Shown piece after piece: positions 15,497-64,000 of a stretch of 64,000 nt of DNA. Both the position numbers and the translations under genes were made by a program. Every line of letters begins with the position of its first letter. Position 1 is the stretch's first letter. This DNA is from a virus: positions 1-64,000 of IMG/VR virus record IMGVR_UViG_3300005253_000193. One strand, written 5' to 3'. Below the pieces are notes generated by a model, which searched no databases, had not been told where the DNA came from, and saw nothing but the letters and a program-made list of their open reading frames with translations.

Positions 15497-18400
15497 CTAA
15501 AACGCATTGTACAATCTCAGGAAGTCCGCAGCGGCCTTATGGTTGTCAAAGATCTTGATTATTGTGCAGCCCCCAAACTCCTTTTCGTATTCCTCAAGCC
15601 TGCCCTCTCTCACTATGTCTAACTGTACTTCCAGCCGTATGAAGTGCAGGGGTTCCCAAAGCTTCACCACATACCAGTCATCTGTATCTTCAGAAGGCGT
15701 CATGCAGTCTCACAAAACGTACAGCGTCATCCATTTCAGACATCACAAGCACCCATGATCAATCAACTCCTAGAAAATATTGTAGCACTTCTGAAAGTGT
15801 ATTGCCTCCTCTCTGGTATTGAACCCGGCAATGGTCACATAAGTCTCTAGAGGATGGTGACACAGATATTTAGAAGACAGTTCGCTTCTACGCTCGTTTG
15901 TTACAATAGCTTTTCTAGTCCCTCTATAGGCACCCAAATTCCACAATGTTCCACCCACAGGAATAACAACTTGCCAGTATTTGTTCAACAGTTTTGGTCT
16001 GCGTCTAGAAATCATTATACACCTTCACAAAATTGCTGGCCGCGCGGAGGTCATCAAATTCCGCTATGGTCCTGGTTTGTGCCTTCCAAAATTTGTTCCC
16101 ATGCAAGACGGAGACGGGATCAAGATACACGGCCCTTCTATGAGTGTCCTGATGACTTCCGAGATTAGTCTCACTCCAGAGCTTTCCGTCCTCCTTTGGT
16201 ATGACTACATTGTATCTAGAAGGCATTGTACAGCTCACAATATTTTACAGCTTCCAAGGTCTGACCTTCCTCAAAACGAGCTATTACCACCGCCCCTCTA
16301 TAAGGTTCCACGTATCTTACTTCCCCAACCCATTTGTACGACATGTAGATCCTTGCTTGCATCCCGTCTCCAGCGAGAATGCAAAGGCCGACCGTTCGTT
16401 TCTTTTTTCTACGTCTAAAATGCATTGTACATATCCAAGAATTGGTGCGCTTCCGCATGTGATGTAAATTCCTTGATCAACGTATAGGAATCCATACTTC
16501 TCCCGGAAAACTTCCCAAAGTCGATGTCCTCCCACTCTTTCATTGATGGATGAATGAAGGCTCCGTCAAGGTCAAGGCGACGAACCACAAAATAGCGGAC
16601 ATAGATTCCTTCGCTAACCATCAATGACTCTATTGCCCTAGAAGGCATTGTATAAGTCCCTAAAGGCGGCGGACTCCTGTAAATCTTTAAACACACCAAG
16701 GATAGTGAGAATGCTTCCTTCACTAGTGACACTGGACGCATCCCTAAATCTTATGGAGACGGCTTTTCTAGGGTGCCGAGAAGGAGACACCGTCTCATTC
16801 CATACCATCCCAGGAGGTGGAAGCACAACAACCCATTGACTAGTAAAATCAAAAGGCATTGTACAAATCCCTTAATTGATCTGCTTTCTGTCTCTCCGTA
16901 AACTTACCAAGGACCTCATAGATTTCGTGAAGTACTCTGTCTGCCTCCCTACTAGAGTGTTGTGACGTGAAAGCCAGTGGTCTTATAGAAGACTTGCTGA
17001 TCAATACATAGTAAAGTCCCTTTCCTTTTTTAGAAGGCATTGTACATCCTTTTAAATTGCTGTGCATCTTTCAGCTCATAGAAGCTGGCAATGATCTTAT
17101 AGTGGGATGGAAGTTCGTCTATTTTTTTCCTTATGATGGCTCTGTTAGTTTCCATAGCGGGAACTGTTTTCCATTCCTTTTTAGGAACAAGAACCATGTA
17201 TTCCCCCACACCCATTTTCTGATAGAAATCCAACATGGACACGTTTTCAGAAGGCATTGTACATGTTCCTAAATAATGTGGCTTCATTCAAATTGTCAAA
17301 CACACCAAGGAAGCAAACAATAGAACCAACATAGGTATAATGATGAATGCTTGCCCAATTAGTGATGATCGCTCTCCGTGTTCCTATAAGGAATGACAAA
17401 CCCCCTTCCCACACCCTTCCAGGGCCAGGTATCATAATAATAAATTGATCATTGAGTTCAGAAGGCATTGTAAGCATCCTTGAGCCTTACAGCTTCCCTC
17501 AATTTATCAAACTTACCAAGCAGGATGCAATCCTCAAAGCCCTCTGCGACCTGCTCAACCACGGTAGCTCTTCTAGTACCCTGACAACCCATCCATTGTT
17601 GATGCCGTTGATACCACACTTCGCCTGGAGGGGGTAAGACCACGGTCCATCTTAAATCAGAAAGCATTGTACGCATCCCTAAACTTCAGCGCCTTTTTGT
17701 GATCATCAAACTTTCCAAGGACAATACATCGTTTAATTAGGGATTTGATTGAAGTTGAAGTCAGAGCTGCTCTTCTGGTGCCATTATGCATCCATTTTCT
17801 ACTCCATACCTCACCAGGAGGTGGAAGCATAACAACCCAAGGACCGCGAAATTTAGAAGGCATTGTAGTTGTTCCTGAGGACTAATGCTTCTCCCAACTC
17901 AGCAAAAGCGCCAAGAATGGAAACAATGCCCATACCCGGATAGACTTCAGAATTTAAACTGGCGTAGCGAAAAGAAGCAGAACATCTACAGCTATGTTTG
18001 ACCCATGGCCCGATTCTGTTCCATACCTTTCCAGGCCGAGGAATGACAACCACCCACAAATCATTTACCTCGGCATAATAATCAGAACGCATTGTAGCCG
18101 TTCCTAAAGGTCGCACCATCCACATGATCATCAAACACACCAAGGATGGAAACGATCCCTACATCCTTATTGGCAAAATACGATATGTTGTTATAGAGCA
18201 GGAGAACCGCCATCCTTTTACCCTGCTTTGATCCCATATGTTCCCCCCACGTCAATCCAGGCCGAGGAACAATGACGACCCATTGATCCCCTAGTCCATC
18301 AAAAGGCATTGTATAGATTCCGAAATATTACTGCCTCCGCAGAAGTGTTGAACACGCCGATGAAGGAAACCAATCCCACTTCGATATTAACCAGTGGGAG

Positions 18401-18773
18401 GATGCCACCATAACGACATATAGCAGCTTGTCTGATTTCAGAAGAGCTGGGGGGAAAGAGGGAGAAATGGATGGAATCCCCCCACACAACTCCAGGTCGA
18501 GGAAGCATCACAACCCAGGAGTCGTTGTTGTTAGAAGGCATTGTACAAATCCTGGAATATCCTTGCCTCCGTGGAAGTGTCAAACACGCCGATGAAGGAG
18601 ACTATCCCCAGTTCAAGATTGACGCGAAGGAGACTGCCAGCGTAACGACATATGGCAGCCCTTCTGGTATTGTGGAAGAAAGGGAAAGGTGAGGCAGGAT
18701 CCATTGAACTATGTTTCCACACCTTACCAGGAGCAGGAATGATAACAACCCAAGTTTTATCAAGAGAGACCAT
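15497..18773 (-). CDS. tandem chain of 15 small paralogous genes (63-81 aa) ending YNAF/YNIF/YNDF: 18531-18773, 18299-18541, 18082-18309, 17853-18092, 17657-17863, 17458-17667, 17247-17468, 17030-17257, 16849-17040, 16638-16859, 16415-16648, 16216-16425, 16005-16226, 15770-16015, 15497-15703
   Basis: shared WVV.P.PG..W start and GxF...A..FR..YNAF* end; recurring TACAATGCCTTCT(AA/GA/AG) junction with 11-nt overlaps. Confidence 0.85.
15690..15755 (-). pseudogene. internally deleted YNAF-family remnant
   Basis: WVLVMSEMDDAVRFVRLHDAF*, with both terminal motifs adjacent. Confidence 0.5.
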
Positions 18774-19307
18774 TGAACCCCCGAAATCAAACAAACTACC
18801 AGATAAAGCCAAATCACCAGAGAAGTCAAGTAGTCCGTTTACTCCGTGCCACAACCAAAAGACAGCTATGTTAATGAGTCATTAACCATGTTTAAGAGAT
18901 AGAAGGATACGTCCAAGGATACATCAAAAACTTCATATGATGTAAAGACTCATAGAAAGGGTGATAGACCTGAGACGTAAAGCTCAGGGAAAAGCGGAGA
19001 CCAGCAGGACAGGGGGAGAGACCAGCCTGAAAGGGAAACCCGAAAGGCGTGAAAAGGGTTGTCCAGGAAGCCACAGGAAGCCAGAAAAGGGTTGTCCGGG
19101 AAGCCAGAAAAGGCGGCGTTCTTCCTCTTCCTCCCTGGCTTCTGGATGTTCTTCATCCTCATCTTTGTCATCATCGTCATCGTCTTTTTCCAAGGGTTTC
19201 CAAGGGTTTTGTGGTGATGTATGTTATTTGGTGGGGGATGATGAGGATGAGGAGGATTGATTGTATCAATCATCATCTTCATCTTCCTCGGGCCTACAGG
19301 ATTGACG

Positions 19308-19600
19308 TATCCTTGTCACGGATAGTTTATACCCACAGTGGGTGGGTGGGTGAAAAGTATCCTTGTCACGGATAGGGGGCACGCAAACTTCCAAACGCTG
19401 CCTGACGTTATCCGTGATAAGGATTGACTGACTCTACACCCACTGAGGGCTCGGAGAGACTATCAGTGTTGACCCAGAGTTGACAAGGCATGCCCCAGAG
19501 TTGACTATCCTTGTCATGGAAATGGTGACCCATTTTGTTATGACAGTATCAGGACCCACCATATATTGTTTTGTCCTCGGTGTTATCCGTGGTACGGACT
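19308..19600. repeat. cluster of TATCC-N7-GGATA-type repeats
   Basis: TATCCTTGTCACGGATA at 19308 and 19358; inverted copy at 19409; variants at 19506 and 19584. Confidence 0.75.
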
Positions 19601-20178
19601 TAACGACGGATTTGGTGGTGATAGTATCAAGGCATACCATATATTGATTTACGGGGTCTTATCAATTTTTGACTTGTGTTTTTTATGGATATGGTCTATA
19701 GTTTGGTTGGTTTTGAAAAAGGCCAAGGGACTTCACGCCAGTGATGTCTCCTTTCTCATCCCAACTAAAACTCAGTGCTGGTGCACGCAGGCTCTATCTC
19801 TGTCACGGACAGGCGATCGCTTTTTTTTACACTTCCTAGCTCTGTATATCATAGCCGGTCACGACTCACTATTCCTCATCGTAGTATTGTGTTTCGTTTT
19901 ATTCCCTGTCGATTTGAAACTTCCTGGCTCTGTATATCATCTGTCGTCTGGTCCGCCGGTTCCTCTTAGTGTTATGTTTCGTTTTACACATCCTCTTCTT
20001 CCCGGGGCTTTATCATCCTCATCTTCTTCCTGGTGGCTCACCGCCGGTTTGGAAGTATGTGAGGAACAACAAATATGCTTCATAGAACAAAGTCCTTGTT
20101 GCATCCTAAATAACCGTCAATGTAAACTTGTCGTACCGTGTGCATAGGGCATACGAAGGCAACCAAGGAGTAACGACG

Positions 20179-20682
20179 ATGACTAGCAAGCAAACCGCGA
20201 AGACCACCGCCACCACTTCCCCCACCGCCGTGTGGAACCAACTCAAGAAGTGGCCTGGCAAGACGGCGGGGCCAGCCCCCAGCAACGCACTCCTCGTCAA
20301 GTCCGTCGCCCTCGGCTACCGCGCCGGAGCCGCCAACGCGCTGGCGGTGGCGATGTACATGCGTCCTGCGGGCGCGACGCAGAACCAGATCGCGGCCGTT
20401 TGTGGTGGGCCGCAGCTCAACGTCTTCCGGACCATGGTGGCCACGGGCGCGGCCAAGATCGGGACGCGCGTGAAGGCCGCCAAGGAAACCCGGAACATCG
20501 ATGGCAAGAGCCACACCGTCTACAAGGTCGCCGTCACGGGTGGGACGCCCAAGCCCAAGAAGCAGGCGGCTACCAAGAAGCAGCCCGCCAAGAAGGCCCC
20601 GGCCAGGAAGCGGGCGGCCAGGAAGTCCGAGGCCGCAAAAGTGGTCGAGGCTCTGGAGTCCGGATCGGTTCCCGCCAGCTAA
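20179..20682 (+). CDS. basic DUF3489-like winged-helix-like protein with KA-rich tail
   Basis: AAGGAG SD; LGYRAGAANALAVAMYMRPAGATQ...GPQLNVFR. Confidence 0.75.
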   Translation: MTSKQTAKTTATTSPTAVWNQLKKWPGKTAGPAPSNALLVKSVALGYRAGAANALAVAMYMRPAGATQNQIAAVCGGPQLNVFRTMVATGAAKIGTRVKAAKETRNIDGKSHTVYKVAVTGGTPKPKKQAATKKQPAKKAPARKRAARKSEAAKVVEALESGSVPAS

Positions 20683-20701
20683 CCACCGACTGCGATAAAC
20701 T

Positions 20702-20731
20702 GAGGCGGGAGTAACATCCCGCCTCTTTTTT
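20702..20731 (+). terminator. intrinsic terminator
   Basis: GAGGCGGGA-GTAACA-TCCCGCCTC-TTTTTT. Confidence 0.8.
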
Positions 20732-20905
20732 GCCTGGACGTTGTTCCAGTTACTATTCATCTTCCTGGGTCTACAGGGATTTGAAACTTCCCAGCTCTGT
20801 ATATATCCATATGTCCTGGTGGGCGGCTTCTTCTTTTGGGTTTCGTCCTCCTCATCTTCTTCCGGGGTTGAGCGTTGGACAGCATATGAGGATTAAGACG
20901 ACTCT

Positions 20906-20975
20906 TTTTGCGGGTGCATCTTCCACACCCCCTGTTTAAAATAGTAGCATGTTTAATTACACGGCAAACAAGGGA
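20906..20975 (+). promoter_or_regulatory. repeated promoter/leader (copies at 21609-21677 and 22540-22600)
   Basis: TTTTG(C/T)GGGTGCATC...TA(G/A)CATG(T/C)TTAATTACACGGCAA upstream of the SD; third copy more diverged. Confidence 0.65.
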
Positions 20976-20984
20976 GTTGGAGCA

Positions 20985-21455
20985 ATGGCAAAAAAGAGAA
21001 CGTACCCTGTGGGCGTGGCCGATATAGAAGGCCACAGCTACACAGCCCGCTTTGACACGATGAAGGAGAAGCGGGAGTACCTGGAGTTGAAGGAGAAGCT
21101 GAACGCCGCCGGTTTTAAGTATGGCATGTGGTTTGCGAGTGAAGGATTTTGGCCCACCGCCGCCTGGAAATTGGTGGGTAGGCACTTCCTCCTCAGCTTG
21201 GCCAGTGCCACCATGATGAAGGATGCAGGGGGAAACCCGTGCCACGAAGACGCGTTTGGCGAACCGCGCCACCAAGGGGAATACAGCTACTTGTTCGTCT
21301 ACGTGGGGCCGTTTGACGAGGAGTGGGAGCTTGGGGAACCACCGCTTGTAGACGGAGACTTCCCCGAAAAGCATTGGCAGATGATTTTCAATAACGCGGT
21401 GGAAGCTGCGGACTTTGCCAACAGGTTTATACCGGCGGGCAAGCCACTCTTCTAA
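20985..21455 (+). CDS. hypothetical protein, paralogue of 22611-22973
   Basis: LNAAGFKY...GPFDEEWELGE...WQMIF vs LNSAGYSY...RPFNREWKFGD...WEISF. Confidence 0.7.
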   Translation: MAKKRTYPVGVADIEGHSYTARFDTMKEKREYLELKEKLNAAGFKYGMWFASEGFWPTAAWKLVGRHFLLSLASATMMKDAGGNPCHEDAFGEPRHQGEYSYLFVYVGPFDEEWELGEPPLVDGDFPEKHWQMIFNNAVEAADFANRFIPAGKPLF

Positions 21456-21687
21456 CCCACCGATTTCTGAAACTTCCGGGGTTAGTATAGGCCCCGGTTT
21501 TTTATCCTCCGGTTTTCTTGTTGTTCTTCTTCGCAGCGGGTCTGTGATGCCATCCTCTTCTTCCCAGGGGGCTGTCGTGGCCCTTGGAAGACTTTGTTCT
21601 TTGAAGGTTTTTGTGGGTGCATCACTTGGGCAACACGTTTACACTGGTAACATGCTTAATTACACGGCAACACGGGAGTTTCGAAAC

Positions 21688-21876
21688 ATGGCATACGTGA
21701 TTTGGAAGCGGCCCAACTGGTTCCTCCACAAAGGCACTTTTAAGGATGCTCGCCAAGTGCCGCAGAGCAGTGCGCGATGGACGAGGAAAGTGGAACACGC
21801 CCAAAGATTTGATGCCTACTGGGCTGCGGAGTGGGCTTGCAGGCATCTGGACTTCACGATTGTGAAGGAGGTGTAG
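21688..21876 (+). CDS. hypothetical protein
   Basis: GGGAG SD; follows the repeated promoter. Confidence 0.6.
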   Translation: MAYVIWKRPNWFLHKGTFKDARQVPQSSARWTRKVEHAQRFDAYWAAEWACRHLDFTIVKEV

Positions 21877-21880
21877 GACG

Positions 21881-22159
21881 ATGACCAACACGATTGTTGA
21901 AGTACCAACACCCCACTCGCTCTTCGAGACCCTAAGCCCAAACATGGTGGCGGAGTGCATACCCGGCGTACAGGGCGATCTATATCGTCTTCTTTGGGCG
22001 CTGGTACACAAGCACAAAAGAGAAGCGAGACCGGGAGCACCGGATTGCCTGGCCCGCTTCTGGAAACAGATTCCCAGAGAAAGCCAATGGGAGTTGAACA
22101 GCTTGGCCAGGAAGCATGAACTTTACCTTGCGGATTTGCTCCTACTTGTCCAAGAGTAG
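21881..22159 (+). CDS. hypothetical protein
   Basis: AGGAGG SD. Confidence 0.6.
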   Translation: MTNTIVEVPTPHSLFETLSPNMVAECIPGVQGDLYRLLWALVHKHKREARPGAPDCLARFWKQIPRESQWELNSLARKHELYLADLLLLVQE

Positions 22160-24065: not shown

Positions 24066-26062
24066 TCAAAAAAGAGAGCAGTTGTACAGGAAACGTGCGG
24101 CTTCATCCTGGGTGGGGAAGGGTTTCCGCCCAATGGAAGAAAGGATTATACCACGGTCGGAGGGATACCACTTATCCCCTAATTTGGTTATGCTTCCCAA
24201 CAGTATGCTCGGTGGATCGGTGAATCCAAGGGCATTCCCTGACCACACCTCCAAAACGTAGATATTTGTAGTCCTCACAAAATGCCATTTCTTTAATATT
24301 GGGTCTGCGTACATCATCGGTTTTCTCAGAACTGTGAATATGCCTTGAGTATCTTCGCGCAATGTTATCTGGGATTAGGGTCCATAACATGATAGCTCCT
24401 CAAAACTTTGAGCTTAGCAGAAGATACATGGCGGCTTCATGCCGGGTTGGGAACTCTGGAGGATTGCGTACTGTTTTATGGGAGTCGACATCCTCCGTGA
24501 AAAGGACTGCCTTTGCTTCTGAATCATGTACTATGGCATAATATTTTAAGCCTTCGACCACTTCTATTATTGCGCCAGCCGAAGTTGGGAAATGTTGAAA
24601 GAGAGACTGTTCACTATCAAACACTGACCAACGCTGCATTTTCCTCTTTTGGATTGGATCATGGTGTTGAGATGATTCTATCAGCACATAGGGTCGGTCC
24701 TTGCCGGAAGCAATTGTGGCATCATCCGTTAAGGGACGGCTTACCCAAACTTCGTGTAGTTTAGAAGACATTTTGCGGCGATCTCCAATGTTTCCAGCTT
24801 TGGTGATATTTTCCAATTGTCCATTCCCTCGGGTTCTATCTTGAATTTATTTTCACAAGCATGTATAGATCCAAGAAAGATCATTGAATCAAAAGGAGCC
24901 GTTGTTGATGCTTGGAGGAGGGGTGCTGTTTGTCTGGCTGCGTTTGGGGCCGATGTGCACATTGCTCCGTCGGTGCTGCCCCAACTGAATGTTAGGTTAG
25001 AAGATGGTTGGCCGGGTCCGGGGGCAACATTTCCAGTTTGGGGCTGAGCCTGATTTTTGAGTTTGCTTTCTTGAACATGGGCTGTCCAGTGGTTGATGGC
25101 CTCTATCACTGCCGGATTTTCTTGATAGTTCGTTGAAGGAGCTTGCCTCGTCCCCGGTATATTGGGGGTAATTGTCACCCCGCAATCAAAAGTTTGCATG
25201 GCTGTTATTTCATTCTCTTGCACAGTAATTGCCCCCAATTAGAACTTATTCATGTTCAATATGAAGAAGTAAGCGTCCCCTAAGTTGTCAAAGACATATA
25301 ATCTACCATCCCATGGGATGATGTTGAAGTATAGCGTGGCCAAAAACACGTCACCGTCCTTTTTAATCCTTCCTATGTCTGTCAAAAGAAGGACATGATC
25401 TTTCCCTCTAATGAATATTGTTACAGTCCAGAACTTTTCTTCGGAGTCAGCATTGAAATATGTGCTTTCCAATTGTTCGCGTTTTGCTGATGTAGTCATG
25501 ATTAATCTCCCAATTAGAACTTGTCTTCAATTTCTTGATAGTTCTCCGGGACCTTGATAACATGCACTTCTCTTATCAAGTAGTTTGATAGCCAGAAAGT
25601 ATCTTTTGTGGGACTGGATTGTCTTGGTGGGATAATCAACAGGAGTTTGTGAACTTTTTGTTTTCTGAGGTGTCCTTCAGGGTAGTTCCAGATTCCGGTC
25701 TTGCAAGTTCTTATTTCGCAGACCTGGGTAATGAGGCCTTTAAGCATTGAAAGTTCTTTCTCATAGATTTTTTTCTCTGGGTGTTGGCTAACGAATGCTC
25801 TTTCCAAGAGTCGTTGTATGTAGATCGTTGTGTCTCTGAATATCTCAAGATCGATTGTGTAGTCTATTCCGGTGCTTTCAAGGAGCTCGGCTGCTTTGAG
25901 TTCTGCTGCCTCTAGAAAGTCAGAAAACTCTTTTCCGTATCCACAACGAATAAAGTTCATGGGTTTGATTATTTTAACGTGATCCCCTACTTCTATAAGA
26001 CTTGGGTGCTGTGCGCCTTGGATATCGCCGTCGGAAACTTTTTTTGAACTTTCTCTTGACAT
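24066..26062 (-). CDS. five hypothetical genes (24066-24362, 24400-24816, 24741-25238, 25239-25499, 25514-26062)
   Basis: contiguous minus-strand ORFs; several end F...(D/E)A..(F/Y)...F*. Confidence 0.55.
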
Positions 26063-26832: not shown

Positions 26833-26911
26833 TGGTTGGCCCGGTGGGATTCGAACCCACGACCCCAAGATTAAAAGTCTCGTGCTCTTTATCCAACTGA
26901 GCTACGGGCCA
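26833..26911 (-). tRNA. tRNA-Lys(UUU)
   Basis: cloverleaf, CT-TTT-AA loop, GTTCGAATC, encoded CCA. Confidence 0.9.
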
Positions 26912-26984
26912 TAGGAGGGTTTACATATCATATAGCAGTATATATAGTCCACACCCATCCACAACAGATTTTTTGATAGTGTAT

Positions 26985-27060
26985 GCCGGATTAGCTCAGG
27001 GGTAGAGCGGGGTCCTTGTAAGGCCCAAGTCGCAGGTTCGAATCCGTGCATCCGGCACCA
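26985..27060 (+). tRNA. tRNA-Thr(UGU)
   Basis: GCCGGAT/ATCCGGC acceptor, CT-TGT-AA loop, CCA; bulged T stem. Confidence 0.88.
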
Positions 27061-27277
27061 ACCCTTCTACGGCGGAGAATGCAACATGACTTCCAAACCA
27101 TCCAGGTCATCTCCTGCAACCAACCATACGGAGAGCATCATGTACCGGCGGGCTACAGTGTTGTGGCTAATCGCTATATCAATGCTGGTCACTGCTTGTC
27201 TCATCGTGCTCAAGGCATATTTGGAGTTTTTACCATAACCTTTGAGGGGGCAGATTCGAGTCCTTCCCCCACCACCA

Positions 27278-27354
27278 TTGGGAGTGGCGCAGCCTGGTAG
27301 CGCAATTGCTTTGGGAGCAATAGGTCGCTGGTTCGAATCCAGTCTCCCCGACCA
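27278..27354 (+). tRNA. tRNA-Pro(UGG)
   Basis: ATTGC-TT-TGG-GA-GCAAT, GGTTCGAATCC, CCA. Confidence 0.88.
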
Positions 27355-61445: not shown

Positions 61446-64000
61446 TCAGTAATCTTCCAGGATTTCTATTGACGAGCCTTCCACGGTTTTAGTGACACGT
61501 ATCACTTGCTGGAATCCTCCATAATCCAGGCTGTGATGCTCAACAACCCAAACTTGTCGCTTCAGTTCCTCGGCCCGTGATTGGAGAAGCTCAAGTAAGT
61601 CTTCTACCCCCTCCGGGTTGAGATGTTGAGTTGGTTCATCAAAGACCTCAATGTTGGACTTGATTCCACTCTTTCCTAGAATGAGATTTGCAAGGCCCAT
61701 GGTTCCCGCCAACCTCAATCTTTGTGACTCGCCGCCCGACCAGGCTTCCCAAGGAACGAGGTCTTCATTGTAGGGGGACTTGATAAAGACCGTGAAGCCC
61801 TTTGTTATGGAACCAGATTTTGTTTCCCGTTCTACATCAAACGCAATCTCCCAATTGTGAAGCCCAAGCTGCATCAGACTGTTGCTGACCTCGACTTCCA
61901 ATTGGTTGAGAGCCTCTTCAATCATGAATAACCTGACTTCCTTGAAGCCCTTTATCCAATACTTGTTACACTCATGTTTGGTCAGGAGATCGTCCAAATG
62001 AAGTACGAGCAGTTCGAGTTCCTTTTCAAAACCAATGAGCTGTTCTTCTGCAGTCGCTATTAAATCCTTGTGGGGGTTTTTTTCTTCCAAGACCTGGTCT
62101 AGATCCTCCTGCGCATCATCCACTTTTTCGGAGAGGTTGTTTAATTCATTTTCATATGTCCTTTTTTCAAGGATGAGTTCTCTTATTTTGTTATCGACCT
62201 TCATCCTGTCATTTTGAAGGTCCTTCTTTTCCTCCTTGAGTTCCTTCAGTTGTTTTTGGATGTGTTCCAAATCCTCGTTTTCATCAGATAGTTTATCCTT
62301 TAATTTATTACCTTCACTTTCAATCCTTTTCTTTTCGTCACGTAAATGCTTGGCGGAGACCTTCTGCCCACAATGGGGACAAGTGTTGCCGACTCCATCC
62401 AGTTTTTTCCATTCCTTTCTGCTTGCATCGATTTTGGTCTCTAGCCGGGTGATTTTTTGTTCCACAAAACCCCTGCTTGTGTTTTCTTCATCAAGATTGT
62501 CCTGCACTTCTTTCACTGCGAGATCAAACTCGGCCAGATCATCCTCAACTGTTTTCATTTCCTTGTTATGGGAGCATCCTTTCCCTTTCTTTTCCTCGAG
62601 CTTGTTCTTGTGGTCCTTTAGAACGTTCTTCAATACTTTGACACGTTCCCTCTCAGTTTTTAAATACCCTTCATTGCTATCATAATAATTTTCCAGATTG
62701 GTCTCGGTGAGGGTTATGTTTCCCTCCAAGGTTGCTATATCAGATTCGCAGGAACTTATCTTGCCAGCGATCTCGGTTGTCCACTGGGTTGCTTCCTGAC
62801 TTTTGTCCAACCAAAAGTCAAGTTCAAACATGTCGGAAAACAAGGACAGTTTTTGAGCCGGTTTAAGATCAAAGAACATGGGGGAGAATTGTCCGGTAAT
62901 GATAGAGTGTTGAAAGGATTCTGAATTGAGGCCAATCAAATCTTCCACAACTTGTTGGTCCACGGTCTCACCGTCAAGCTCCAGATTATTTGGGTTCCAT
63001 GTACGGATCAGTACGTGCTCCTCCCCTGACCTCTCAAAGAAGAGATGACCTGCACATCGTCCTTTAACACCCCAGGTGCAAACGTCCCCTGCCTTGAGAT
63101 TGCGAAGGGTCTTTCCGTAGATGATCCAAAACAATCCATCCCAAATGGTACTTTTGCCGCTATTATGAACAACGATTCCATTTGCCACAAAATTATGACA
63201 ATCTTCAACTTCCATATCGTATACATCTTCATACCCATAAAACTCGACGCTGATAACTTTATGGTTTGTCTTTCTTATGACTACTCCAAAATCAGACAAT
63301 CTATTGTAGACGGTCTGTGTGCTGCATTCACAAATTTTGGCTATTTCTTTTCCGGTTGCACCGGATTTGTAAATATTTTCAAGCCATGCTTTATTATTTA
63401 TTTTTTTCCCCGATTTATTTCTTTTTGCGATCCCAGCATTTTTAATAGCAAGAACCCTTCTTTGCCTATCTTCTTTCCATTGATATTTTATTGTGCTACT
63501 GATTTTAGCTTTTGTGGTAGAGCTGTGTTTCTTTCCCTTCATCCCTTTTGGATGTATGTTCCACATGAAATTTTCTTTTTCATGATTCTTATAAGCATGA
63601 AGGCTTTGATGCTCCACAGAGGATAAACCCTCCAAATTTTCTATTGAATTGTCCCATTTTTTATGATTTTTGTGGTGATGAACATCGTATTGACCACAAA
63701 CCAGTTCACCAATGAATTTATGTTCATATTTTGATTTACACTTAGAATCGTTCAGAACTAAATGGACATATCCATCATATGTTTTTCTATACAAAGATCG
63801 TAAGCTATCACCTCTCTTTAATTCCCCCAATTTACAGTATGATCCGTCGGTCTTTAGAATTGGATGGTCATAAGTTCCTATAATGTAATCATATGAATGA
63901 AAATGCTTATAATCTTTGCCCTCATATGACAGTTTGTAAACTGGCTTTCTTATTCCTGTCTTGCGAACGTCCTTTGCCCTTTTCAAAGTAAAACAATTAT
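61446..64000 (-). CDS. SbcC/Rad50/gp46-like ATPase, intein-containing, 5' end outside the window
   Basis: SGKST, CPHC hook, coiled coils, WSGGE signature, VFDEP, VEH. Confidence 0.9.
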   Translation of the reverse strand, partial: NCFTLKRAKDVRKTGIRKPVYKLSYEGKDYKHFHSYDYIIGTYDHPILKTDGSYCKLGELKRGDSLRSLYRKTYDGYVHLVLNDSKCKSKYEHKFIGELVCGQYDVHHHKNHKKWDNSIENLEGLSSVEHQSLHAYKNHEKENFMWNIHPKGMKGKKHSSTTKAKISSTIKYQWKEDRQRRVLAIKNAGIAKRNKSGKKINNKAWLENIYKSGATGKEIAKICECSTQTVYNRLSDFGVVIRKTNHKVISVEFYGYEDVYDMEVEDCHNFVANGIVVHNSGKSTIWDGLFWIIYGKTLRNLKAGDVCTWGVKGRCAGHLFFERSGEEHVLIRTWNPNNLELDGETVDQQVVEDLIGLNSESFQHSIITGQFSPMFFDLKPAQKLSLFSDMFELDFWLDKSQEATQWTTEIAGKISSCESDIATLEGNITLTETNLENYYDSNEGYLKTERERVKVLKNVLKDHKNKLEEKKGKGCSHNKEMKTVEDDLAEFDLAVKEVQDNLDEENTSRGFVEQKITRLETKIDASRKEWKKLDGVGNTCPHCGQKVSAKHLRDEKKRIESEGNKLKDKLSDENEDLEHIQKQLKELKEEKKDLQNDRMKVDNKIRELILEKRTYENELNNLSEKVDDAQEDLDQVLEEKNPHKDLIATAEEQLIGFEKELELLVLHLDDLLTKHECNKYWIKGFKEVRLFMIEEALNQLEVEVSNSLMQLGLHNWEIAFDVERETKSGSITKGFTVFIKSPYNEDLVPWEAWSGGESQRLRLAGTMGLANLILGKSGIKSNIEVFDEPTQHLNPEGVEDLLELLQSRAEELKRQVWVVEHHSLDYGGFQQVIRVTKTVEGSSIEILEDY
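63162..64000 (-). mobile_element. intein with HNH/NUMOD3 homing endonuclease (partial)
   Basis: VYDMEVEDCHNFVANGIVVHN|S; VHHKNHKKWDNSIENL; GKKHSSTTKAKIS; AT-rich. Confidence 0.9.

Follow-up and report, generated by a model that had tools for sequence, protein, structure and literature searches.

A tandem array of fifteen small paralogous phage genes with next-gene start codons inside conserved gene ends

An uncultured 106-kb phage carries 15 intact paralogous open reading frames in a row on the minus strand (18773-15497), each encoding 63-81 amino acids; the last four codons of the chained copies hold the start codon of the next copy, giving an overlap of 11 nt. This layout, found in a window of 64,000 nt (the whole stretch of DNA that was analysed, to which all positions refer), is real and unusual. 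With a probability of roughly 0.6, we read it as an old tandem-duplicated family of small phage proteins, which would present varied surfaces on one scaffold and be translated as a chain from a leftward polycistronic block.

Organization of the array

The original prediction had placed an array of 15 genes at these coordinates, and both the coordinates and the features were verified on the minus strand (Table 1). All open reading frames of the array lie on one strand, and the 15 consecutive frames run through all three phases. Besides the intact units, the family includes one free-standing member and what is left of a sixteenth unit, a 17-codon relic. The relic sits in the 66-nt gap between U14 and U15; it answers to the internally deleted unit that had been anticipated and is consistent with the loss of a unit while the chain stays intact. 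In addition, the PxPGxVW hairpin is absent from U9. The chain of 11-nt overlaps ends at U14, because the end of this unit lacks an ATG.

Table 1. Units of the array and other members of the family
Feature	Position	Strand	Description
Unit 1 (U1)	18773-18531	-	80 aa, MVSLDKTWVVIIPAPGKVW...YNAF; array head
Unit 2 (U2)	18541-18299	-	80 aa, MPS...YNAF; start inside the U1 YNAF-stop, 11-nt overlap; gene called from the same ATG in public collections
Unit 3 (U3)	18309-18082	-	75 aa, MPF...YNAF; 11-nt overlap
Unit 4 (U4)	18092-17853	-	79 aa, MRS...YNAF; 11-nt overlap
Unit 5 (U5)	17863-17657	-	68 aa, MPS...YNAF, pI 10.8; 11-nt overlap; structure model m84ebdec1c8e2
Unit 6 (U6)	17667-17458	-	69 aa, MLS...YNAF; 11-nt overlap
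Unit 7 (U7)	17468-17247	-	73 aa, MPS...YNAF; 11-nt overlap
Unit 8 (U8)	17257-17030	-	75 aa, MPS...YNAF; 11-nt overlap; N-terminal half diverged
Unit 9 (U9)	17040-16849	-	63 aa, MPS...YNAF; 11-nt overlap; no PxPGxVW hairpin
Unit 10 (U10)	16859-16638	-	73 aa, MPF...YNAF; 11-nt overlap
Unit 11 (U11)	16648-16415	-	77 aa, MPS...YNAF; 11-nt overlap; diverged
Unit 12 (U12)	16425-16216	-	69 aa, MHF...YNAF; 11-nt overlap; most diverged of all units
Unit 13 (U13)	16226-16005	-	73 aa, MPS...YNDF; 11-nt overlap
Unit 14 (U14)	16015-15770	-	81 aa, MIS...YNIF; no ATG in its end
Relic unit	15743-15690	-	17-codon mini-ORF MSEMDDAVRFVRLHDAF-stop; only the C-terminal helix motif kept; its end and the U15 start share 14 nt
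Unit 15 (U15)	15703-15497	-	68 aa, MTPSEDTDDW...YNAF, pI 4.7; last unit; TACAATG kept, followed only by a 4-codon frame
Free-standing member	14243-14419	-	58 aa, ...AYDAF; own strong GGAGGA ribosome-binding site; no overlap; jackhmmer E 3e-13

Conservation of the junctions

The 13 consecutive junctions from U1/U2 to U13/U14 read TAY AAT GNN TTY stop, with the ATG of the next gene inside AAT-G; one base over, the Asn-Ala-Phe-stop codons of one gene become the Met-Pro-Ser of the next. Thirteen units end in YNAF, U13 in YNDF and U14 in YNIF, and the N termini set by the 13 junctions are MPS (seven times), MPF (twice), MRS, MLS, MHF and MIS, in agreement with the overlaps and the list of starts in the original prediction. 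The pattern of two successive junctions has 8 matches in the window and none in 100 shuffles. Public gene callers independently place the start of most units at the junction ATG, and 13 of 30 '-11' overlaps belong to the array in a crude genome-wide count that is contaminated by shadow ORFs.

The synonymous bases needed for the junction ATG are frozen, and the junction is held at the nucleotide level. The junction Asn is encoded by AAT in 15/15 units (51% genome-wide) and the junction Tyr by TAC in 14/15 (48% genome-wide), which upholds the proposed double role of the junction as protein end and stop and as the next start; the codon at the Arg position has G as its third base in 87% of the units. 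The penultimate residue is Ala or Asp, with a G-first codon, wherever the junction ATG is used, and Ile in U14. Two look-alikes of the motif outside the array (12530-12718 and 25242-25526) have Lys at this position and no overlap. Since the motif also occurs in these look-alikes and in the free-standing member, part of the junction's conservation could stem from a requirement of the protein itself for a C-terminal Y-N-x-F.

Translation signals and coupling

A strong, G-rich ribosome-binding site is present only at U1. Its SD duplex reaches -9.2 kcal/mol, as compared with about -10 at free-standing neighbours, a mean of -4.4 at the internal junctions and -2.8 at random positions; the advantage of the internal SD-like elements over the latter is only modest. 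The SD-like element that had been proposed to precede the junction is in place but energetically weak: 10 of the 13 junctions have a GGA or GGG at a distance of 8-9 nt before the ATG, and the junction GGA falls in the range of the phage's usual, G-rich SD (-12 to -8). Inside the array, the minus strand has no terminator-like site and no enrichment of promoter-like sites, and the 13 aligned junctions share no conserved hairpin, attC-like element or conserved pairs.

These signals are best read as a chain that would be translated by stop/start coupling from the single ribosome-binding site at its head. Ribosomes would load at U1, and at each stop a part of them would re-initiate 11 nt upstream, aided by the weak GGA/GGG element in the preceding Arg-Asp/Asn codons. 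Because re-initiation at each stop would be partial, the output of the units would be coupled and would probably drop along the array, giving an expression gradient. In published reporter work, coupling persists but becomes weaker with increasing overlap, from -4 to -25 nt (PMC12548453).

By its layout, the array is filed as a putative translationally coupled overlapping operon, with the downstream start inside the upstream end at the 13 junctions (11 nt) and at the relic junction (14 nt). Like the coupled overlapping genes for which termination-reinitiation has been described (ATGA / TAATG pairs; Huber et al. 2019, PMC6728339; Huber et al. 2023, PMC10666635; review, PMC12548453), its genes are co-directional: the downstream start falls within the end of the preceding gene, the coding sequence before it contains an SD-like element, and the internal ribosome-binding sites are weaker than that of the operon head. 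In contrast to such pairs, in which the enriched or most efficient spacings are -4, -1 and -8, the overlap here is 11 nt, and it repeats 13 times in succession between paralogs. It is also made of a conserved protein motif, Y-N-A-F, and therefore every copy carries the start of the next.

Divergence of the units and selection

All 15 units match the family profile (E 3e-27 to 4e-11), and their pairwise amino-acid identity ranges from 18 to 56%. The closest pair, U1-U2 (56% protein identity), lies at the right (upstream) end, where the most similar neighbours had been expected, followed by U5-U6 (50%). Identity is slightly higher for neighbours and decays with distance (rho -0.26, p 0.008), and units towards the tail fit the family profile progressively less well (rho -0.63). 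The best DNA match between units is 76% over 132 nt. Third codon positions are clearly less conserved than the amino-acid level, pN is 0.30-0.44 against a pS of 0.62-0.76, and the resulting dN/dS of 0.24-0.44 indicates that the units are coding and under purifying selection. Altogether, the units are real coding paralogs that arose by tandem duplication. With identities of only 18-56% and saturated synonymous sites, the copies are judged to be old and anciently diverged. The unit proteins that we looked up and that occur on three assemblies are letter-identical there; the other two assemblies are contigs of 59,189 and 19,501 bp.

The format of the array may go back to a founder gene with identical 9-nt sequences (ATGCCTTCT) at its start and end. 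Head-to-tail copies, automatically in register, would result from slippage at these repeats or from unequal exchange between them.

Predicted fold and candidate families

The units have conserved hydrophobic core positions (W-V-V, PxPG-x-V-W, R-R-A, I-L-G-x-F, E-A-x-x-F and the C-terminal Y-N-A-F), and their loops and surfaces are variable, with pI values from 4.7 to 10.8; the protein ends are conserved and the middles variable, as in the original prediction. Two AlphaFold models (pLDDT 80-81) have the common order strand-strand-helix-strand-helix, with low confidence in the variable insert, and point to one shared scaffold, a three-stranded sheet with a C-terminal helix that has weak look-alikes only (MbtH-like, GIY-YIG). 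The best match in a VIA-wide structure search had a Z of 4.5, below the tool's meaningful level. Foldseek against the PDB and BFVD had no match at E<=0.001, and nothing useful emerged from the ESM Atlas. At the sequence level, scanning 10 units against Pfam and PHROGs produced sub-threshold noise only, and a PDB sequence profile search had 0 matches at E<=10.

MbtH-like proteins (PF03621) are of similar size, and in them, too, a C-terminal helix packs against a three-stranded sheet. For both models, the structural ranking is led by their chains (Z 4.0-4.5, rmsd 2.4-3.5, 49-53 residues), though not above background rows. The units lack the SxWP...PxGW signature of MbtH, and PF03621 had no Pfam match to the 10 units scanned and none in a six-frame search of the genome at E<=1. 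The GIY-YIG core fold (PF01541) is also of similar size, with a sheet and a C-terminal helix as in the units, and GIY-YIG chains (UvrC, I-TevI, PD-T4-3, Slx1) recur at VIA Z 2.6-4.3, below the meaningful level; Foldseek listed UPF0213 at an E of about 2. As for the catalytic residues, the Arg and Asn positions are conserved in the units, whereas the catalytic Glu is not conserved, its position being E in only 9/15. PF01541 gave no match at E<=1 for 10 units and none in the six-frame genome search (control positive in 13/14 genomes). The RNase H1 hybrid-binding / Cauli_VI domain (PF01693) was rejected, with no profile match at E<=1 and a structural Z of only 2.2-2.5.

Searches for relatives

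A word index of 5.8 billion clusters held no match besides units of this phage itself, and an exhaustive profile search of 1.8 billion representative proteins found no convincing homolog outside the phage. The latter added only two proteins, both marginal: P0016, with two fused C-terminal-like modules (E 6e-5), whose own relatives amount to a single unannotated protein, and P0017, a triple repeat (E 7.5e-4). A scan of IMG/VR for the junction pattern gave 0 matches; none of the 26 matches in JGI metagenomes or the 9 in GTDB genomes agreed with the profile, all being due to chance or to unrelated short tandem repeats. The family is absent from two fragments that carry a 64%-identical capsid protein, the flanking proteins have no relatives in IMG/VR, and no phage record matched the array DNA. 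In these searches, the family is thus carried by one phage lineage only, and with no Pfam or PHROG match and no convincing outside homolog, the original view of an unrecognised family stands.

Three types of repeat element were also considered and rejected. An integron-type cassette array would not fit, with no attC-like inverted repeat at the 13 aligned junctions and the integrase family PF00589 absent from the genome (control positive in 14/14 genomes). For a diversity-generating retroelement target, the reverse transcriptase family PF00078 is absent, and the similarity between repeats is only 60-85%, with differences at all bases. No link to the phage's TIGR repeats was seen, there being no TGGCTCGCT repeat in 10,020-22,000.

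Discussion

The original prediction went further than an old array and proposed an active accordion or cassette library, in which the shared junction is a recombination site, units are frequently gained, lost and shuffled, and populations carry different repertoires of binders, for example against host defences. We regard this as unlikely. A 13-nt identical core (TACAATGCCTTCT) does recur every 181-232 nt, the relic attests to at least one deletion with the chain kept intact, and neighbours are slightly more alike than distant units. However, exact homology between junctions is limited to about 13 nt, which is too short for efficient homologous exchange, and neither an integrase or other recombinase, nor a reverse transcriptase, nor a conserved structure or other element at the junctions was found. 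Recent, near-identical copies are absent as well, the maximum being 56% protein and 76% DNA identity, with saturated synonymous sites and a pS of at least 0.62. Gene accordions such as poxvirus K3L and the paralog arrays of giant viruses form by tandem amplification followed by diversification, and their hallmarks are near-identical copies and a copy number that varies between isolates. The array resembles them in its head-to-tail paralogs, its variable surfaces on a conserved core and its one relic unit, and differs in that its copies are anciently diverged and that no variation is visible among the proteins looked up on three assemblies. Just as doubtful is a self-propagating 'chain link', in which the junction combines the C-terminal anchor of the fold, the stop, the ribosome-binding context, the next start and the microhomology for in-register gain or loss of units. 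The phage could then grow or prune a coupled library of surface-varied mini-proteins against variable host targets such as defence systems; if true, repeat-protein or cassette diversification would have a counterpart at the level of genes.

Other explanations concern the products. Overlapping gene pairs commonly deliver subunits jointly, and the units, with one scaffold and core positions common to all, might be subunits of one hetero-oligomeric assembly that chained translation supplies in a fixed ratio. This is rather improbable, since fifteen different subunits of a single fold would be unprecedented, one member is free-standing, and the wide variation in surface and charge (pI 4.7-10.8), together with the drift of the tail units, is more in keeping with loosely constrained paralogs than with an obligatory complex. 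Alternatively, the units could be joined into multi-domain chains by programmed +1 frameshifting at each Phe-stop: passing from one unit to the next always takes a +1 shift, the junction is preceded by a purine-rich element, and the outside look-alike P0016 is a single protein made of two fused modules of this kind. Such a polyprotein is very improbable, because the slippery TTT-stop occurs in only 4/15 units and TTC, with poor +1 re-pairing, is preferred in 11/15; the SD-like element and the shift site are at least 9 nt apart, as against 3 nt in prfB; and the ATG, needless for a frameshift, is strictly kept. We give the least credence to untranslated frames in a non-coding repeat or RNA element. 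The lack of homologs outside the phage in our searches would suit it, but fifteen open frames of 63-81 codons follow one another, amino acids are clearly more conserved than third codon positions, the AlphaFold models are confident, no conserved RNA structure occurs at the junctions, and the output of Tandem Repeats Finder contains no array with a period of one unit.

If the old, chain-translated paralog family is the correct reading, its members probably bind partners during infection. Because one stable scaffold would present different surfaces, the most likely role is the binding of a set of different host or phage partners, and host take-over or counter-defence appears to be the most plausible class of function. 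As an orphan fold family with at least 16 copies in one phage, the units are reasonable candidates for host-interaction or counter-defence screens. The finding is at present a single-genome curiosity. It suggests that a tandem array can inherit working translation signals simply through a few bases shared by the two ends of the gene. If translated as we infer, the chain would be a natural 14-step series of -11 stop/start overlaps, and hence a test bed for the reach of termination-reinitiation and the decay of expression along a chain.

Large phages have early or host-takeover blocks in which many small genes, mostly unrelated to each other, are tightly packed, as in the SPO1 host-takeover module and the early regions of T4 or T5. 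The array likewise consists of many very small genes on one strand with overlapping stops and starts, whereas its 15-16 adjacent genes all belong to a single orphan family of paralogs and are linked by the same junction throughout. Like those blocks, it is located in the non-structural arm, where its neighbours include RNA-repair-type and accessory genes.

Array layout and junctions

Fifteen paralogous open frames (U1 at the head to U15 at the tail) follow one another on the (-) strand, and the probability that so many long frames succeed one another by chance is negligible. Thirteen successive junctions read TAY AAT GNN TTY stop, and the ATG within AAT-G opens the next frame, giving an overlap of 11 nt per pair and a +1 change of frame at every step. 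Two such junctions spaced 195-225 nt apart are matched 8 times in the window versus 0 times in 100 shuffles. Public gene callers independently place the start at the junction ATG for most units, and the layout details of the original prediction, including the set of N-termini (MPS, MPF, MRS, MLS, MHF and MIS), were all confirmed on the sequence.

The proposed dual use of the junction as protein end, stop and next start is borne out by its codons: Asn is AAT in 15/15 units (51% genome-wide) and Tyr is TAC in 14/15 (48% genome-wide). TAC puts C at -2, the most frequent base at that position in this phage's genes (37%), and the codon at the Arg position has G as its third base in 87% of units. 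Wherever the junction ATG is used, a G-first codon (Ala or Asp) encodes the penultimate residue; U14, where the chain ends, has Ile there, and the look-alike genes at 12530 and 25242, neither of which has an overlap, have Lys. The nucleotides of the junction are thus frozen, whereas synonymous sites are saturated elsewhere (pairwise pN 0.30-0.44 versus pS 0.62-0.76; dN/dS ~0.24-0.44); in conserved columns codon positions 1 and 2 are kept and position 3 is free. The free-standing member likewise ends in Y-D-A-F, which makes the Y-N-x-F end an ancestral feature of the protein; the ATG overlying that end is maintained separately. The N-terminal Pro-Ser is the junction read one position over. No conserved RNA structure was found at the junctions.

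Features of the array and its surroundings
Feature	Position	Strand	Remarks
Array U1-U15	18773-15497	-	15 open frames, 63-81 codons each
Relic unit	15743-15690	-	mini-ORF MSEMDDAVRFVRLHDAF-stop, 17 codons, in the 66-nt U14-U15 'gap'
Free-standing member	14243-14419	-	downstream; 58 aa, ends AYDAF; profile E 8e-6, iterated search 3e-13
Motif look-alikes	12530-12718, 13466-13750, 25242-25526	-	small genes sharing the C-terminal motif alone
Further gene with the same motif	13904-14161	-	
Region upstream of U1	18880-20080		short repeats of 9-10 nt at 19064-19257
PNKP-type phosphatase gene	11877-12443		left arm
Three tRNA genes	26833-27354	-, +, +	Lys-UUU, Thr-UGU, Pro-UGG; left arm
Large ORF	61446-63986	-	846 aa

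Further members, age and origin of the array

The relic MSEMDDAVRFVRLHDAF is the C-terminal helix motif left from a decayed sixteenth unit, and shows that most of a unit can be lost with the chain left intact. Its stop region overlaps the start of U15 by 14 nt, so that ribosomes may still be handed on even by this decayed unit. Judged by profile and iterated searches, the free-standing gene clearly belongs to the array family. The three look-alikes and the gene at 13904-14161 have the ending ...NKF, ...DKF or one like it, and contain an F-x(3-4)-[ED]A-x-x-F helix motif like that of the array units. Neither profile nor jackhmmer searches picked up any of the four, which could be highly diverged members of the family or could just share a common strand-helix motif.

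Tandem duplication holds as the source of the units, which are head-to-tail paralogues with 18-56% protein identity (highest for U1-U2, 56%, and U5-U6, 50%). Neighbouring units are slightly more similar than distant ones, a weak decay (identity versus distance, rho -0.26, p 0.008), and at the DNA level no two units match better than 76% over 132 nt. The array is old, as opposed to a recent amplification. Its source may have been a founder gene beginning ATGCCTTCT and ending ...A ATGCCTTCT AA, which would have a 9-nt direct repeat at its two ends. If slippage or unequal exchange took place between these repeats, it would yield head-to-tail copies with stops and starts automatically in register, and once a first copy had been made, ordinary unequal crossing-over could lengthen the array.

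The original prediction had gone further, proposing an 'accordion library' of variant binders that recombines at the junctions. An actively breathing library of this kind is not what we found: the copies are ancient, the exact homology common to the junctions is just ~13 nt, no integrase or reverse transcriptase was found in the genome and no attC-like structure at the junctions, and no variation between assemblies is visible in the unit proteins looked up. Unit sequences are present in NCBI, IMG, ENA and Logan, and those looked-up proteins that recur on three contigs do not differ between them. No TIGR repeat core lies within or adjoining the array.

Expression

Shine-Dalgarno sequences of this phage's genes are G-rich and lie at -12 to -8. 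Most free-standing genes of the left arm have strong GGAGGAG sites (duplex with the 16S tail ~-10 kcal/mol), and U1 reaches -9.2 kcal/mol; the internal junctions have GGA or GGG alone, with a mean of -4.4 kcal/mol versus -2.8 at random positions. Several free-standing small genes in 12443-14419 (-) share a strong GGAGGA(A/G)..ATG, unlike the weak sites inside the array; this context reads '...EEIM' in translation of the upstream frame. On the (-) strand the array is free of terminator-like sites, and it shows no enrichment of promoter-like sites. The simplest reading is one strong ribosome entry site at the head, with ribosomes that would re-initiate 11 nt back at each stop along the chain. 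A +1 frameshift at the junctions, which would instead produce a polyprotein, is unlikely, as a slippery TTT-stop is present in just 4/15 units and the junction ATG is strictly kept.

In published reporter work, lengthening the overlap from -4 to -25 nt weakened coupling without abolishing it, and genomes show an excess of -4, -1 and -8 spacings (PMC12548453). The present array, in contrast, uses a run of -11, which is therefore unusual but workable. Re-initiation through chained -11 overlaps predicts an output that declines along the array. Head units fit the family profile better than tail units (rho -0.63, p 0.012), which is consistent with weaker constraint downstream but carries little weight because the larger head subgroup biases the profile in its own favour.

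Fold and relatives of the unit proteins

The orphan status of the family stands, with no match for the units in Pfam, PHROG or a PDB sequence search. All solid matches among 5.8 billion word-indexed clusters and, by exhaustive profile search, 1.8 billion representatives are this phage's own units. Two unannotated proteins matched marginally: P0016 (139 aa), with two fused C-terminal-like modules, and P0017, an NCBI repeat protein of 162 aa on a 228-kb contig (profile E 7.5e-4). The latter has three copies of ...YNNCFAVIIPRRGVLW..., each resembling the unit C-terminal motif followed directly by the N-terminal motif, and could result from translation of a DNA repeat. Searches for related phages with the family, by pattern scans of IMG/VR, JGI metagenomes and GTDB genomes and via capsid relatives and flanking proteins, found none. 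Multi-hit loci arose in the metagenome scan because unrelated tandem DNA repeats at L038 and L034 (WLWD/WLWI contigs) and at L022 and L014 (Ga0214919), with spacings of ~39 nt and ~111 nt, happen to contain TACAATGCNTTYT. The array, for which one genome is the evidence, is a real, neatly built oddity: its proteins form a new orphan family, and its operon architecture is a new variation on stop/start coupling.

AlphaFold2 models built from an alignment of 15-16 paralogues only were confident and concordant (pLDDT 79.6 for U1 and 81.0 for U5), predicting a strand, a long variable loop with PxPGxVW, a strand, a short helix, a strand and a long C-terminal helix. Structure searches with these models gave nothing significant (Foldseek E ~1-2); the recurring weak matches were MbtH-like proteins (Z 4.0-4.5) and GIY-YIG cores (Z 2.6-4.3). 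Since these matches are insignificant and Pfam profiles for GIY-YIG, MbtH and the RNase H hybrid-binding domain retrieved nothing in the genome (controls positive), we treat the predicted fold as a small sheet-plus-helix scaffold without assigned kinship. Conservation falls mainly on hydrophobic or structural positions; the loops differ in length and the proteins in surface and charge (pI 4.7-10.8), as in one scaffold offering many surfaces. This suggests, as a working function, that the units bind diverse partners during infection.

Genomic setting

The full IMG/VR record of 105,963 bp, complete by CheckV and covered in its first 64 kb by the window, comes from a tailed phage. Its right arm (+) encodes an HK97-type capsid protein, a prohead protease, a tape-measure protein and a J-like tail protein. 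The left arm (-), where the array sits, holds densely packed small genes together with the PNKP-type phosphatase, a MoxR-like ATPase and a VWA-metallopeptidase. The region upstream of U1, whose short repeats are of low complexity, has no convincing ORF and may be a control region for the array transcript. The tRNA genes and the phosphatase hint at tRNA supply or repair functions. The large ORF has Pfam matches to intein-splicing and HNH domains and may be a gene interrupted by an intein.
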